Shown here piece by piece: positions 32,523 to 42,051 of a stretch of DNA of 64,000 nucleotides. Made by a program: the position numbers and the translations under genes. Location of the stretch: the NCBI GenBank assembly GCA_965645245.1, contig OZ287067.1:2170001-2234000 (forward strand), read 5' to 3'. Within the stretch, counting starts at the first letter, position 1; each line of letters opens with the position of its first letter. Source of the DNA: Massalongia carnosa. Lineage: Eukaryota. The notes under the pieces are model-generated. The model searched no databases. It was not told the origin of the DNA and saw only the letters and a program-made list of their open reading frames with translations.

Positions 32523-33225
32523 TAATCTAGATTAGCCCAAGAGACCTCAAAATAGGCTTAAATAAGCATCTCTAAAATGCCTCAACTATCCGAAATTTGC
32601 AATACGAGAGCCGCAAGTAGAACTATTGTTGAAAATTGTGCATATAACGTAGATCCTCGCATAGTCGGGTGTTCTCATAAGTAAAGCCTCCTTGATAGCT
32701 AATAGTTATCAGTTTTGACATTCTCGTCCCTTGGCAAGTTGGCGGTTTTCGTCCGAACCGGCGTTTCCCAGCCCTTGAAGGAGCATCTTAGCCCTTCAGT
32801 TTCCCCTGTTTCTTAATTTATATCTGAATCACTATCACTCTATTTTCCTGTAAAGCAATTCAGATCCATAGCTCCGTCTCAGCAGATTGCCTAGGAGTGG
32901 AGCTGCTCCTCCCTCTCTTAACTGTCTAAGAATCCATTACGAAATGAACTAACCTTTGAAATCTAACGATCAAAGAGCGACGATCTTCTTTTATACCTTA
33001 TTCACTAGAGTTTCAAAACTCAGATAGGATAATATGCTAGGATGGTTGTAAGATTATCCCTCCGTCTGGCCGTTTGGCAGCCACCTCAAATAGGCTTAGT
33101 TTTTTACCGTAAGGCTGAGTCGCGAACATCAAAACTTTTACCCCTTTATTTCGCCGCATAGTAAATAAAGAGATAAACATCACTTAAAAATCACCTTAAC
33201 AGCTAAATTTATTGAATAAATCATC

Positions 33226-35063
33226 ATGAGAGGCATAGAAATTGAGGTTCCTGATCAATCAGATACTTTGCCCCCCTCAGTGCTAAAAGAACAGTCAAAA
33301 AGAAATAAACCAAGCATGAAAAGCATCATTGATTCTATTCCCCCTCCGTCATCAAGTTATTCTCCAATTTCAATCCCATTCCGATCACCCCAACCCTACG
33401 AGACATTGGGCTTGATAAAACAGACTCCCTACAGTTTATTCTCTCTCTTTTTCAGCTCTGATTTATTGAGAATTGTAGCCGAAAACACCAATTTGAAAGC
33501 AAATAAGAAGTATTCCCGCGACAGTAAGGAGCAACGTCGATGGCACGACACGTCAGCTGCTGAAATAGGAGCTTTTTTGGGAATTCTTCTATATATGGGC
33601 CTAGCTCGTATGCCTCGTATCACCGACTATTGGAATACCACTTCAAACTTTGCCATTCATGAGATGATTACCCAAGCCATGAGTCTCAAAAGATGGGAGC
33701 AAATCAAGCGATTTTTGAAGATATCCAATCCCTACGAGACCATTGATACTCGAGGCCCTGATTGGTGGAAAAAGCTGGAACCATTGACCACAGACTTTCG
33801 AAAACCATCAAAGAAATACTGGATTCCTGGAAGCCATTTGTCAGTTGATGAGCAATTGATTTTATTCAGGGGATGAAGTTGCCACACCATGCAAATAGCC
33901 ACTAAGGCGGCTGGTGTAGGCTTCAAAATCTATAGTCTATGTCAGAATAATTACCTTTTTGACTTATTATTTACCTCCAAGGTGAGTCAAAAGATGAGCT
34001 GGAAAATGAGCTAGAAAATGAGCTGAAAATAAGCTAACTAACTTTGATAAATAGGTGTCAAAAGTTAGTGAGTTGAAAACAGCTCGACAATTACATTTTT
34101 CAGCCAGCAAATGGAATTTAACCCCATCTTCCCTGATTGTCATTCAACTGTGTCGGAATTTACCTTCTTATGAGACGTCAAAATACGCCGTGTTTCTTGA
34201 TAATTTCTTCACCAATATCAGACTTTCCAAAGCATTGAAAAGCATTGGAATTGGGGCTTGTGGGACGGCCAAATCGGGATGTGGATTTCCAGCTGATTTA
34301 CTACGTCTCCGTGCAGCTGCCACAAAGAATAAAGACTAGGGGAAAAAGGCTATAACCACAGTTAAAGAAGACAGAAAAATCATTGAAGAAGGGGACATTC
34401 TATGTATGGCTTGGGTGGATTTAAACACCGTACAATTCATGACCACCATTCATACAATTGAGGAAATGGAGACGATAATCTACAAGAATGCTCGTCGACG
34501 TCATGGAATTCCCACAGATTGCAGAGTCATCGTTGACGAAGAAGAAAAGCTCTCATTTCCCATGCCCATCGTGGAATATAAGCAGCACATGGGCGGGTCA
34601 GATGGGAATGCTCAGCAAAGATCGTACTATTGTCCTGAAAGATCTGATCGATGATACTGGTGGCCCTTATTCATCTTTCTTTTAAAAGGAGTCGTGTTGA
34701 ATGCCTTCAAATTGTGGATCACTCTTTATCCTGATTCAAGACTCAGTCATTCGGAATTTCAAAAGAAAATAGTTCAAACCCTACTAACCAATCAAGGGGG
34801 TATTCTACGAAAAGGCGTCTCAGCATCATCAATTTCAGATGAGGTAGTATGTAAATAAATGGGAGCATTTATCTAAGAAAGCCTATTGTTTGGCTTGCAA
34901 AAGGCAAATGCCCACGCTCAAACGCCGCCGGCCACTTGCCGAAATAGAAGGAAATTGCACCAAAAGAAGACGTGCAAGTCAGACCATCTGGCAATGTAAG
35001 AGCTGTGGGCCTTGCTGCAAAAAGGAAGCATGTTGGGACATTTTACATATACATAGATCATGA
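33226..35063 (+). pseudogene. piggyBac-family (DDE_Tnp_1_7/PGBD) transposase with one intron, three in-frame stops and a frameshift
   Basis: LFSLFF..IVAENTN, EIGAFLGILLYMG, MSLKRWEQIKRFL, LSVDEQLILFRG*, intron 33982-34054, VFLDNFFT, GIGACGT, YKQHMGGSD, YWWPLF, C-terminal Cys-rich domain; stops at 33874, 34337 and 34652; 4-bp TAAA duplication near 34853. Confidence 0.9.
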
Positions 35064-35089
35064 GGGGTAATTGAGGTGTTGTACCCATT

Positions 35090-36405
35090 CACGCGGGTGA
35101 CAAATAAATTGCAACGTGTAAGCGAATTTACCCCTGAATGCCCCATCAAAACACCCTCCTTTTTTCAACTTTTTATCTCATCATCAATGTCTCGACCCAA
35201 AAAGCCTCATTATGATACTCCCACAAAGGCCAAAGTTCAAGGAGCTTATCAATTTCTCATCTCACATGCAATTCCATTCGATCCACGGGCCATTTTTCAG
35301 GAATTTGGCGTGGCCGAGCGCGCGGGCTATAACATCATCAAAAGCGGAGCTTCTTCTCGCACACGTCACAATTCTTCTCTCGTTGAGACTCGGGGTCGAA
35401 AGCGAAAGATTAGTGATGATCAGCTGAAGGAGGCAGATCACATTCTGCAGGATCAAGATCTACAATTGGAAGGAAAACGCTACACATGGGATGCTTTAGC
35501 ACAGGAGATTGGGGCCGACGTGATGGGACGTACAATGAAGAGAACTCTTACAGCTGCCTTGAATTATCACAAATGTCTAGCCTGTGTCAAAGGGTGGCTG
35601 GCAATGGCATCAGAAGAAAGAAGAGAAGAATTTGCTACAGTTATGTTAAATAAATATCCTCGGTCCGAAGACTGGCATCGCGTACAATTCAGCGATGAGA
35701 TTCATTTTGGCTACGGGCCTGAAGGACAGTTACGAATCATTCGTAAGCCCGGAACAAGATATCGTTGGGATTGTATTCAGCATCGTGATGCACCACCTGA
35801 GAAAGATCGTAAAAGAAAGCACTGCTGGGCAGCAGTTGGTTACAATTTCAAGTCGGATATCTACTTCTACGATGTGCCCAGCAATAGCAATGGAAAAATG
35901 ACTCATCAGGTGTATATTGACGCTATTCTTGATCCCGTCGTCAAGCCCTGGTTGGAGCGTGGAGATGACTTCGTACTTGAAGAAGATGGAGACTCTGGTC
36001 ATGGCACGGGCAAGAGACGAAACGCGGTCACAAAGTGGAAGTTAGATCACGATTTAGAGCACTATTTCAATTGTTCTTCATCTCCTGATCTAGCTCCCAT
36101 TGAAAATTGCTGGCAGCCCGCAAAGCAGCATGTTCGTAAATTTCCTCATTGGGACGATGCAAGTTTGGAGCAGCTGATTAGGGAGGGATGGGCTCGAGTC
36201 AGTCAGGAATTTATCAATGAAAGGGTGTTATCCATGCCCAAAAGATTGAAAGAGGTGAAAGATGCAAAGGGGGCGATGACTGGTTATTGATCTCATGTAA
36301 TTTAGATGAATTTTATCAGCTATGCAGATGATGGTTGATGATGAGATGAAAATTTGAATAAAAAAGGGGGGGTAAATTCGCTTACACGATTTTGTCACCC
36401 GCGTG
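35090..36405 (+). mobile_element. Tc1/IS630-like DNA transposon with CAC-terminal tripartite TIRs and 5-bp TSD (CCATT)
   Basis: Perfect 15-bp terminal IR CACGCGGGTGACAAA (35090-35104, 36391-36405), 20-bp inner IR (35115-35134, 36369-36388), third 22/24 IR block; CCATT directly abuts both ends (35085-35089, 36406-36410). Confidence 0.88.
35187..36290 (+). CDS. Tc1/mariner-IS630 superfamily transposase (DDE_3-type), intact 367-aa ORF
   Basis: N-terminal HTH-like region with RGRKRKI; catalytic motifs WHRVQFSDEIHF, FVLEEDGDSGH, SSPDLAPIENCW; C-terminal SMPKRLKEVKDAKGAMTGY*. Confidence 0.92.
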   Translation: MSRPKKPHYDTPTKAKVQGAYQFLISHAIPFDPRAIFQEFGVAERAGYNIIKSGASSRTRHNSSLVETRGRKRKISDDQLKEADHILQDQDLQLEGKRYTWDALAQEIGADVMGRTMKRTLTAALNYHKCLACVKGWLAMASEERREEFATVMLNKYPRSEDWHRVQFSDEIHFGYGPEGQLRIIRKPGTRYRWDCIQHRDAPPEKDRKRKHCWAAVGYNFKSDIYFYDVPSNSNGKMTHQVYIDAILDPVVKPWLERGDDFVLEEDGDSGHGTGKRRNAVTKWKLDHDLEHYFNCSSSPDLAPIENCWQPAKQHVRKFPHWDDASLEQLIREGWARVSQEFINERVLSMPKRLKEVKDAKGAMTGY

Positions 36406-37432
36406 CCATTATCGTCAGAAAGGGAAAATGCAGTAAATCTGATTGGTCAGATTAAAGTTATTAGTCATTACCCGGTGACGGTGCGTGTAAAACTGTGGCT
36501 GCCAAACGGCCAGACGAAGGGATAGCTTTTGTGAAATTAAATTTTTCTTTGAGGTCATTGTAACACTAAATAATATTGACATTGAGGATAGAGAAATCTG
36601 TGCTTGTGGGCATTTTCTTATCTGATTTCAATCATTATTTCTTTCTTAGATCGTTGAAGCGGGAGATTTGAAAATCTTCCTGGAAATAAGACGTGCACTT
36701 CGGTGATTGCGGGGGTTCGATAAGCTATAAGGATCTCTTAAGCATTTAGACAGAAAACCCTGGACCTTTCAGCCTCAAACCTCTCTATTTAACTTCATGA
36801 CAAAAACCTGTTCACCAACATTTTAAAAAATCTTGCATGCTATGGTTAAAACTATGAAAATTCAAACTAAAGCTGCTGTCTGGGGCTTGGAAATGGTAAG
36901 ACGGCAAGATCGCACCTGACCGCTGGGCGTGTCCTAGCAGTTTTGACAAATGAGTTGGAGTGGACCGGCGGAATTGGGGAAGACCTGAGAGAATTAAAAT
37001 GTAGATCTAACCATAGAGGCGAGGAATGAAAGACATGGATCGTTTTGCGCTTTGCTGTTTCTTTTCAATCTTACCTCATCATGCAGCGTCGGTTTTTTTA
37101 TTTTTATTAATTCATTAAGCGTATGCATCCTAAGGATATGACGCTGTGACTGCTATTTATGTACATAAACAACAGTCAGGAAGTGAAACCTTGGCCCCCA
37201 GGGTAAAACCACTCCCTTGTTCCATATTGAACGCAACGAAATCGTTCTTCTACCACGCGGTGCATACACCCAGATCTTCACGCGCTAGGAATCCTGTAGA
37301 CTCGATGAACTAGACAGTGTATCTCCACACGTTCGACGAACGTTCTCTCTCTTTAACCGTTTTGACTCAATGAAGAAAGACTGGCCGTGATCGAGGGCAG
37401 ATCGTGGTGTCGTATAAATGAAGGTGTGAAAG

Positions 37433-39231: not shown

Positions 39232-42051
39232 ATGCGTCTAGACGTAAAGGTAGGTATTTGACCTTCTCTCCTTTAAGTTCGCAAGAAGTCGACCAAGCTG
39301 AAACCAATGCCTGTAGAAGCAACTGTTTGCGAGATCTGAGAGAGTGAAGGGCATTGATTTTCATCCCACAGAGCCATGGGTAGGCCATTTGAGTGCATCG
39401 AGTTTTCTTATGCTAACAATTTCCAAGATTTTGACCACTTTATACAACGGTAAGGGCTCTAGACCGGCAAGTCTGCCAAAATCGCTCTAGAGGGAGGCTA
39501 AGACGGAATCCTCCAGGTCATGTATACATATGGTCGTACGAAACGCAGGTATGGAGGGAATATGGTCCTATATCGTACTGAATTCTTACTCGAAGTTAGG
39601 CAATTGTAAAAACCTTTGAGCTCACCGACGTCCCTGTACGGGCTGGTAGGTTCATAGCTCGTAAGAACTGGATCGTTTGCGGTTCCGACGATTTTCAAGT
39701 CCGAGTTTACAATTACAACACCTCCGAGAAAATAACCTCCTTTGAAGCTCATCCTGACTATATACGCGCCATCGTTGTTCATCCGACTCAACCTTTTGTT
39801 CTGACCGCATCGGATGATATGACAATAAAGTTGTGGGATTGGGATAAAACATGGAAATGCGTGCAAGTATATGAGGGTCATAGCCATTATGTTATGGGCC
39901 TAGCAATCAATCCAAAGGATACCAATACTTTCGCGTCTGCATGTCTAGATCGAACAGTCAAGATATGGAGCTTCGGATCTGGTCATCCAAATTATACTTT
40001 GGAAGCGCATGAAACTAAGGGTGTCAACCACGTCGACTATTACCCACAAGCAGACAAACCCTATCTACTCACTACTTCAGATGACCAGACAGTCAAAATC
40101 TGGGATTACACAACCAAATCCTTGATCGCTACTTTAGAAGGGCACACAAGCAACGTCTCCTTTGCCTGCTATCACCCTGAATTACCAGTTATTATATCCG
40201 GCTCAGAGGATGGTACTGTCAAAATATGGCACGCAAATACCTACAGATTGGAACAGTCATTGACATATGGCTTGGAGCGAGCTTGGTGTGTCAGTTACCA
40301 ACGGGGTCGACAAGGGGTTGCTGTGGGTTTTGACGATGGAGCCGTTGTGGTGAAAATGGGGCGAGAGGAGCCAGCCGTGTCAATGGACAACTCGGGTAAG
40401 TTGATCTGGGCGCGGCATAGCGAGATTCTTTCTGCTGTGATTAAAGGTGGCGACATAACCTTGAAGGATGGCGCTCCTATAAGCCTTCCCTCCAAGGATC
40501 TAGGAAACTGCGAGATATACCCTCAAACCTTGATGCACTCTCCTAATGGTCGATTTGTTGCTGTATGCGGGGATGGCGAATACATTATTTATACTGCTCT
40601 TGCGTGGCGGAATAAGGCGTTTGGTCCCGCACAGGATTTTGCCTGGGGCTCAAAAGACAATAGCAATGATTATGCCATCCGAGAATCGGCTCTGAACGTT
40701 CGGATATATCGCAATTTCAAGGAAAAAGGGGGCGGGATTGATATTGGGTTTCAAGCTGAAGGCTTAACTGGCGGTGTACTCTTGGGTGTCAAAGGCCAGG
40801 ATGGTATTGGGTTTTTCGATTGGGAAAGCGGGGCTCTAGTGAGGAGGATAGAGGTTGATCCGAAAAACGTACGTTACGTTGCTTGAGATATTTCTCATCA
40901 TCGATACTGAACTAAACTAGGTGTACTGGTCCGAGAGCGGGGAGCTTGTTGTCCTAGCCTGTGAAGAGACATTTTATGTTTTACGATTCTCTCGCGAAAA
41001 TTACATCGCTGGCCTAAACGCAGGTCGAGCCGACGAAGATGGTGTTGAAGCTGCGTTTGAAGTCGTCACGGACATCAACGAAAACGTTCGGACGGGTCAA
41101 TGGGTTGGTGATTGCTTCATATACACGAATTCTACGAATCGGCTGAACTACCTTGTCGGCGATAAAACCTACACAGTTTCTCATTTTGACCAACCTATGT
41201 ACCTACTGGGCTACCTTCCCCGCGACGGAAAAGCGTACGTTGCCGATAAAGATGTCGCTGTGACCTCCTATGCGCTTTCTCTGTCAGTTGTGGAATACCA
41301 AACCCTTGTACTTCGCGGTGACATGGAAACCGCAGCTGAACTCCTCGAAGATATTCCAGAGGATCAGAAGAACAAGGTTGCCCGCTTCCTTGAAGGCCAG
41401 GGCTACAAGGAAATGGCCCTTGACGTAGCTACAGACCCCGAACATCGCTTCGACCTTGCCTTAGCCCTTAACAATCTTCCTATTGCCCTTGCGATAGCCC
41501 GAGAAGCCGATGTAGAGCATCGCTGGAAAACAGTCGGCGACGTCGCACTTGCCGCCTGGGATCTCGCGCTCGCCGAGGAGTGCTTTGTCCACGCCAAAGA
41601 CCTGGGTTCACTGCTCCTGCTGCACACCTCCACCGGTAACGCAAAGGGATTGCGCGCTCTTGCTCAGCAAGCCGAAGAAGCAGGATCGCACAACATTGCT
41701 TTTTCGAGCTTGTGGCAGATTGCAGATGTAGATGGATGTATCAATTTGCTATTAAGAACTAAGCGTATGGCAGAAGCGGTACTTTTCGCGCAAAGCTATA
41801 AACCCAGTCGTGCAGCGGCGTTGGTTGGAGAGTGGAAAGCAGGGCTGGAGAAGGCAGGGAAGGGTAAGGTGAGTCGACTGTTGGGAGTGCCCCCAACGGA
41901 CGACGGGGGTGATGAGGACCTATTTGAGGACTGGGCGGAGTATCTTAGACTTGAGAAGGAAGGTGAGCGGCGTCGTAATGAGCGCAATTTGATAGATTTG
42001 GGGAATGAGGATGAATCGAGATTTGCGCCGGAGGTGGAGAGTGAAGCTTAA
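39232..42051 (+). CDS. SEC27: Coatomer subunit beta' (COPI), about 6 exons
   Basis: MRLDVK|KQLFARSERVKGIDFHPTEPW|ILTTLYN|GHVYIWSYETQ|AIVKTFELTDVPVRAGRFIARKNWIVCGSDDFQVRV..., WD40 repeats, YWSESGELV, FLEGQGYKEMALDVATDPEHRFDLAL. Confidence 0.97.

Follow-up and report, generated by a model that had tools for sequence, protein, structure and literature searches.

The Tc1/mariner transposons are recognised by their target. Duplication of TA serves as their diagnostic hallmark in classification schemes and annotation software and, to our knowledge, all characterised members integrate with a 2-bp stagger at TA. A transposon detected in a stretch of 64,000 nucleotides from Massalongia carnosa (contig OZ287067.1, positions 2,170,001 to 2,234,000; this whole stretch is referred to as the window) raises the question of whether this rule applies throughout the group. 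In an earlier note, made from the sequence alone, it had been described as an intact Tc1/IS630-type element at 35085..36410 flanked by the same five bases on both sides, and it had been suggested that it represents a fungal Tc1-like lineage with altered stagger and a target other than TA. From the analyses described below it appears very probable that the element is a cut-and-paste, Tc1-type transposon of a large ascomycete clade which integrates with a 5-bp stagger and not with a 2-bp stagger at TA. The data establish how the element is built, that it is homologous to Tc1, that five bases are duplicated here and at most of its relatives, and that the target is non-random and CC..GG-like.

The element proper comprises 1316 bp (35090-36405; its parts are listed in Table 1). 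The span given in the earlier note marked the right element and included both copies of the duplication. The sequence CACGCGGGTGACAAA forms the terminal 15 bp at 35090-35104, and a perfect inverted copy is located at 36391-36405. Matches to CACGCGGGTGACAAA in the 64-kb window were restricted to these two ends, even when three mismatches were permitted. Beyond the terminal 15 bp, the inverted repeat is imperfect with insertions/deletions and reaches about 98 bp in total, including one block of 20 bp without mismatches and another with 85% complementarity. CCATT abuts both ends, TA touches neither, and the transposase gene is an uninterrupted open reading frame with the motifs FSDE, EEDG, and SPDLAPIE, all as noted before. 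The hallmark of the IS630/Tc1/mariner group, a TA target and its duplication, is therefore lacking in the window element; other traits of the group place it there by descent. A second copy or a miniature copy of the family was not detected in the 64-kb window. Ends bounded by TA were also considered. On the left, 6 bases separate the element from the nearest TA, and on the right 4 bases; these intervening stretches do not form inverted repeats. This possibility was rejected because the boundaries are settled by the unoccupied form of the site.

The unoccupied form was searched in contigs from public sequencing runs matching positions 34300-37200, using four runs designated X2, X4, X5, and X6. 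Position 35084 was found joined directly to 36406 in contigs of three runs, two from X2 and one each from X4 and X5, and was not found so joined in the contigs of X6. The shorter side of the joint measures 23 letters in X2, 49 in X4, and 90 in X5. The X5 contig consists of 181 bases, and its sole other difference is a 6-base gap upstream. In the joint 1321 bases are omitted, the 1316 of the element and five more, and five letters fit either side. The unoccupied site carries a single CCATT, as predicted by precise insertion with a 5-bp duplication and as anticipated in the earlier note. That CCATT could belong to the element end and be bounded by TA, the alternative raised there, does not agree with this single copy. 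Short-sided joints in metagenomes can stem from repeats or from other organisms; the sides in X4 and X5 are long.

The insertion is hosted by a piggyBac-like repeat, 33055-36524, and is located in the 3' part of this host. The host repeat is delimited by 30-bp inverted ends (33055-33084 and 36495-36524). These ends read CCC/GGG, and the bases directly outside are not TTAA. The depth of X2 contigs falls at approximately 36531, consistent with the right end of this host repeat. Pieces of its DDE_Tnp_1_7 transposase are found at 33220-33876, 34055-34339, and 34340-34654 in differing frames, which suggests that the host is probably dead. In five more X2 contigs, position 35089 is followed directly by a diverged form of the sequence 3' of 36410. 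This shows that the host sequence is repeated and that other copies of it are without the insertion; the contigs with the joint are such unoccupied copies.

Regarding the transposase, searches against Pfam yielded DDE_3 as the only match of the window protein (PF13358; E 3.3e-9, 37.2 bits with a curated cut-off of 28.6). An alignment of 31 relatives, A1, was used for a profile, for conservation, and for an AlphaFold model. DDE_3 was matched by 29 of these 31 relatives and HTH_Tnp_Tc3_2 (PF01498) by 13, the window protein itself falling short of E 0.001 for the latter. When the A1 profile was compared to all PDB sequences (E<=1), one match was obtained, the catalytic domain of Sleeping Beauty SB100X (5cr4, E 3.3e-19). 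The alignment spans profile position 130 to the C-terminus, which is the whole catalytic domain. In this alignment D170, D267, and E306 correspond to the Sleeping Beauty catalytic triad; among the sequences of A1, D170 is conserved in at least 90%, and D267 and E306 are invariant. Relative to Sleeping Beauty, four residues are inserted just after the second catalytic Asp, where DGDSGHG plus extra residues is found instead of DNDPKH, and the last two catalytic residues are 38 apart in the window protein compared to 34.

The model derived from A1 has a mean predicted local distance difference test score (pLDDT) of 79. A Foldseek search with this model returned 5cr4 as the top match (E 7e-11, 28% identity, TM-score 0.73 on the target), followed by Mos1 transpososomes and the transposase domain of SETMAR. 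RAG1 was absent among the 18 matches at E<=0.001, and IstA, retroviral integrases, Mu, and TnsB appeared at E >0.001. A match of RAG or Transib type was thus obtained in none of the Pfam, PDB-sequence, and fold searches. The N-terminus is predicted to form two helical groups, 13-53 and 77-125, with a basic RGRKRK (69-74) between them. Because of the Pfam DDE_3 assignment, the sequence match to Sleeping Beauty, and the fold matches, the element is, as judged from its protein, Tc1-like by descent and not Transib-like.

A database search revealed 259 relatives. The named ones are all from Ascomycota, namely Bimuria, Clathrospora, Macroventuria, Botrytis, Pseudogymnoascus, and Acephala. When 1.84 billion cluster representatives were searched with a profile, 457 were retrieved at E<=1e-30. 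The flanks were surveyed in the DNA of 80 related loci from metagenome contigs. Element ends were located by local alignment of the upstream part with the reverse complement of the downstream part for 36 near full-length loci, 25 loci being re-run with wider margins, and by scanning the window and all 80 loci with a motif as anchor. In this way, 33 elements with family-type ends were obtained, and 30 including the window copy remained when the duplicates L007, L023, and L032 were dropped. Not counted were L003, L008, L010, L012, L034, and L047, which show no convincing family-type termini, L011, whose contig begins at the element end, and L045, in which the flanks themselves are inverted repeats. 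Family-type ends follow the pattern C-A/T-A/C/G-G and read mostly CAAGCGG, CACGCGG, or CTCGCGG; an A run comes next.

Identical 5-mers abut both ends in 20 of the 30 elements, and four of five bases match in two more. The 5-mers differ between loci (e.g. ACCCC, CCTAC, CTACC, GTACG, ACAAG, CCGAC, CTCGC, GCCGT, and CCTGG) and therefore represent target and not element sequence. TA is contained in the duplication in three of the 20 perfect cases, CCTAC, CTACC, and GTACG. As a control, the right 5-mer was slid by one to ten bases, which produced 2, 1, 0, 1, 0, 0, 0, 0, 0, and 0 matches, respectively; when left and right flanks were taken from different loci, 10 of 870 pairs matched. The probability of obtaining 20 or more perfect 5-mers in 30 elements by chance, at 1/1024 each, is about 2e-53. 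The 5-bp duplication is a family-wide trait present in most relatives. A chance match of the two 5-mers, which had been left open in the earlier note, is excluded by the empty-site joint together with the 20 perfect duplications, and flanks lacking a consistent 5-bp duplication, also considered there, are not what was found. A scan for short pairs of ends detected two miniature copies. One is non-coding, 400 bp in length (L063, 4377-4776), and bordered by CCAAG on both sides; the flanks of the other (L078, 507-1081) are unmatched.

The same set of loci also contains classical Tc1 elements, in which the spacing is 34 residues and the motifs are of the DNA(S/R/P)xH type: one each in L073 and L080 and the second element of L062. 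All three are flanked by TA on both sides and have CAG/CAC-type ends, from which it follows that TA duplications are recovered by the method where they are present. In L062, the TA-flanked element has ends that closely resemble those of the 5-bp family: they begin with CA and continue with a GTGGGTGG-like block and an A run. This likeness fits common descent. In L062 this TA-flanked DD34E Tc1 (1487-2766) is situated five bases from a member of the 5-bp family with an ACAGG duplication (73-1481), so that the two kinds of ends can be conveniently compared in this pair. Forty-four translated sequences were placed in a quick maximum-likelihood tree. All loci showing a 5-bp duplication fell into one group of 40 rows, with a value of 98 in the Shimodaira-Hasegawa-like approximate likelihood ratio test (SH-aLRT), and the three TA controls were placed outside of this group on long branches. 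Taken together, the empty site, the 20 perfect duplications among 30 elements, and the three TA-flanked controls support the proposal of a fungal Tc1-like lineage with altered stagger and a target other than TA.

To look for common features, the 20 perfectly duplicated sites were compared in the orientation of the transposase gene. C is found in 15 of 20 sites at position 1 as well as at position 2 of the duplication, and G in 10 of 20 at position 4 and likewise at position 5. On the 3' side of the duplication, the second base (+6 as counted in the logo) is T in 12 sites, and the third base (+7) is A in 15. At p=0.25, a count of 15 in 20 has a binomial probability of 4e-6, and a count of 12 in 20 has one of 9e-4. 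Computed from the base counts, the symmetrised target reads approximately TAS-CCNGG-STA. The site in the window, CCATT, matches only the CC half. A CCNGG-like target with TA favoured two to three bases outside is the provisional description of this preference.

The chemistry of DDE cut-and-paste transposases is established, and the integration steps proposed here are based on it. A transposase dimer would bind the CA(C/A)GCGG-type ends by its putative N-terminal helix-turn-helix halves, pair them, and excise the element. The two 3' ends would then be joined to phosphates on the two strands of the target at a distance of 5 bp, preferably in a sequence close to the symmetrised one, and gap repair would yield the 5-bp duplication. 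The changed stagger and target choice may be encoded just after the second catalytic Asp, by D-G-D-S-G-H-G and the 4-residue insertion, and the region of the clamp loop may contribute. Confidence of the model is low at 181-200 and at 271-280. The first segment lies behind the first and before the second catalytic Asp, at the place of the Sleeping Beauty clamp loop, and the second is the inserted segment. At the positions after the second Asp that match the target-contact segment of Sleeping Beauty, an invariant Ser and a nearly invariant Gly are followed by this inserted low-confidence loop. The sequence of the clamp-loop region in the A1 profile is quite unlike that of Sleeping Beauty in 5cr4. 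In the accessible part of a study on Sleeping Beauty, the segment after the second Asp and the clamp loop are implicated in target choice by modelling and mutagenesis; the implicated sites adjoin the target DNA in the model, and their mutation alters target choice or integration (PMC8934666). On balance, we consider it probable that a large, ascomycete-wide Tc1-type clade has abandoned TA and the 2-bp stagger in favour of a 5-bp stagger, with a CCNGG-like palindrome between TA steps as its target. It would then be the first IS630/Tc1/mariner lineage without TA in its duplication, with the segment behind the second Asp as candidate determinant.

Several observations weigh against these proposals. 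A clean 5-bp repeat is missing in eight of the 30 elements: the 5-mer is displaced by one base in L002, a perfect 6-mer is found in L059, three of five bases match in L053, and the flanks of L019, L020, L021, L054, and L070 are without any match. Stop codons are present in L054 (seven), L020 (three), and L070 (one), and the frames of L019 and L021 are open, so that decay accounts for only some of the missing duplications. The stagger may be variable within the family, and L017 might be flanked by TA. The spacing between the last Asp and Glu ranges from 34 to 43 across the family, and six loci, L041, L049, L054, L066, L068, and L070, form a sub-group with 34-residue spacing, LEEDNDSGH and a short loop, and CACGCGG-type ends. 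Neither a 5-bp nor a TA duplication was recognisable in the complete elements of this sub-group, of which there are only two, the decayed L054 and L070, whose frame is broken in addition to its stop codon. A connection between the 4-residue insertion and the stagger is hypothetical, and the spacing range of 34-43 speaks against a simple link. Moreover, the target logo was derived from 20 sites only, several of them from related metagenome samples, and it is asymmetric, as A occupies +7 in 15 of 20 sites and T occupies -3 in 7 (Fisher p 0.025). The tree resulted from a quick search with long outgroup branches and indicates coarse grouping only. Mobility, finally, we infer from polymorphism and from the similarity of copies.

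Comparison with known systems placed the element closest to the Tc1 family (Sleeping Beauty, Tc1, and fungal impala). Common features are a length of about 1.3 kb, a single open reading frame for 340-370 amino acids, a predicted bipartite helical N-terminus, a basic GRKRK-like linker, a DDE domain that is 28% identical to SB100X over its full length, and 5'-CA...TG-3' inverted ends with a G-rich block and an A run, a few relatives starting with CT. The 5-bp duplication, usually without TA, the CCNGG-like target, DGDSGHG with its four additional residues, and the spacing of 38 (34-43) set the element apart from that family. Zator elements are characterised by duplications of 3 bp. They differ from the window element, which duplicates 5 bp and matches DDE_3, also in being reported without Pfam similarity in the available portion of PMC5751038. 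The animal family Intruder (DD38E) shares the 38-residue spacing of the window protein, according to the part of its description at hand (PMC7731502), a similarity that is probably coincidental given the 34-43 range in the 5-bp family. Fungal members of the group departing from plain TA are found among Fot and Fot-like pogo elements, in which, as far as covered by the accessible text, TAA and TAAA duplications are presented as new types beside TA (PMC7386202). These elements indicate that the stagger can shift; their duplications are 3-4 bp, still contain TA, and are made by DDD transposases of the pogo type (Pfam DDE_1) and not by DDE_3 proteins.

It may be asked if the family and its 5-bp duplication have already been catalogued, for instance as 'Mariner/Tc1' from Aspergillus or another ascomycete in Repbase or Dfam, in which case nothing would be new. 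In view of its 259 relatives and 457 cluster representatives, the family is abundant, members are already labelled 'Tc1-like transposase DDE domain' by NCBI and UniRef, and curators building fungal consensus sequences would have seen the flanks. On the other hand, a Tc1-type element with a 5-bp or TA-free duplication was not found in full-text literature searches or in the accessible parts of PMC4188875, PMC9977792, PMC5751038, PMC2836289, PMC2817418, and PMC7386202, a scope that does not extend to supplementary files, Repbase, and Dfam. In those parts, TA is used as a criterion (PMC4188875), TA duplications are described for Trem elements (PMC2836289), Tc1-OP1 is flanked by TA (PMC9977792), and, as mentioned above, already TAA and TAAA were called new (PMC7386202). 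We regard an existing catalogue entry as unlikely.

A second possibility is that the flanking 5-mers were not made by the transposase, being either a pre-existing direct repeat chosen as target or a part of the element. From the sequence of a single insertion alone this could not be decided, and it became very improbable once the unoccupied form was found to have one CCATT and the 5-mers turned out to differ among loci. That the element is of the Transib/RAG type or belongs to another superfamily with 5-bp duplications, its resemblance to Tc1 being superficial, is hardly credible, since only its 5-bp duplication and the CAC start of the window copy recall Transib, which has 5-bp duplications and CAC-type ends, whereas the protein is unrelated to RAG1 by Pfam, sequence, and fold (DDE_3 only, Sleeping Beauty as the only PDB profile match, and Sleeping Beauty, Mos1, and SETMAR folds), the CAC...GTG ends are not conserved in relatives, and the ends resemble those of the TA-flanked Tc1 in L062. 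The CAC termini, listed as a trait in the earlier note, are not a property of the family, in which elements start with CAC, CAA, or CTC, and the similarity to Transib is superficial.

If the favoured explanation, integration of a Tc1-type clade with a 5-bp stagger, is true, annotation tools demanding TA would misplace the boundaries of clade members or reject them. The clade would also constitute a natural experiment on how a DDE transposase spaces its two strand-transfer sites. Solved Mos1 complexes and models of Sleeping Beauty account for a 2-bp stagger at a sharply bent TA, and a close relative with a 5-bp stagger would provide matched proteins for locating the loops that set stagger and target. 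Vectors of the Sleeping Beauty type are confined to insertion at TA. Given proof of its activity, a compact relative that needs a single protein and follows a different target rule could become attractive for applications.

The state of the window copy was compared with that of other copies, nearly all of which differ from it at four places. At residue 167 Arg is encoded elsewhere (35686 = G in all four runs) and Gln in the window copy; at residue 282 Lys is encoded elsewhere (36031 = A) and Thr in the window copy. Conservation of R167 in A1 is at least 90%, and this residue precedes the catalytic D170 by three positions. An extra A behind 35101, missing in the window copy, is present in eight contigs of X2, three of X4, and one of X6. 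The right repeat contains nine more bases near 36388 elsewhere, and loose ends behind 36388 were observed in three X2 contigs and one X4 contig. Because of Q167 near D170 and the insertions/deletions in both repeats, it appears uncertain whether the window copy can supply active transposase or be mobilised efficiently. It would have inserted into the piggyBac-like repeat and gained its private changes afterwards, and it may depend on transposase from other copies.

For the family as a whole, recent activity is suggested. The best database relative is identical in 362 of 367 residues and represents a cluster of 99%-identical proteins with 43 member sequences. In X2, 1277 contigs match the stretch, 649 of them being at least 99% alike. 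A 5.4-kb contig of X6, a run labelled with another organism, carries a copy with 14 differences over 35090-36361 (about 99% identical) and a different flank, which may reflect close kinship or horizontal transfer. By these similarities the family looks young, multi-copy, and recently active. The term intact, as used before, was too strong for the window copy with its private residue changes and its insertions/deletions in both repeats. Similarly, the suggestion that the element may still be active is supported for the family, which looks recently active, and not for the window copy with its R167Q exchange and altered repeats.

Table 1. Parts of the window element and its target-site duplication (positions in the window)
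Feature	Position	Strand	Remarks
Left target-site duplication CCATT	35085..35089	.	Joint 35084->36406: 1321 bases skipped, 5 letters fit either side
Left terminal inverted repeat	35090..35187	+	Terminal 15 bp perfect, imperfect to about 98 bp; without one A after 35101
Transposase open reading frame, 367 amino acids, Tc1-type DDE_3	35187..36290	+	Catalytic D170, D267, E306; private Q167, T282
Right terminal inverted repeat	36335..36405	-	Terminal 15 bp perfect; without 9 bp near 36388
Right target-site duplication CCATT	36406..36410	.	Flanks and empty-site joint

Two further observations were made in the window downstream of the element. At 37016-37200 the contig depth rises again, and many loose ends are found from 37185 in X2 and X5, which suggests that another repeat begins there. 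At 39600-40886 on the + strand, a long open frame rich in WD-repeat-like sequence is present; it looks like an ordinary eukaryotic gene, and it may resemble the coatomer beta-prime subunit.

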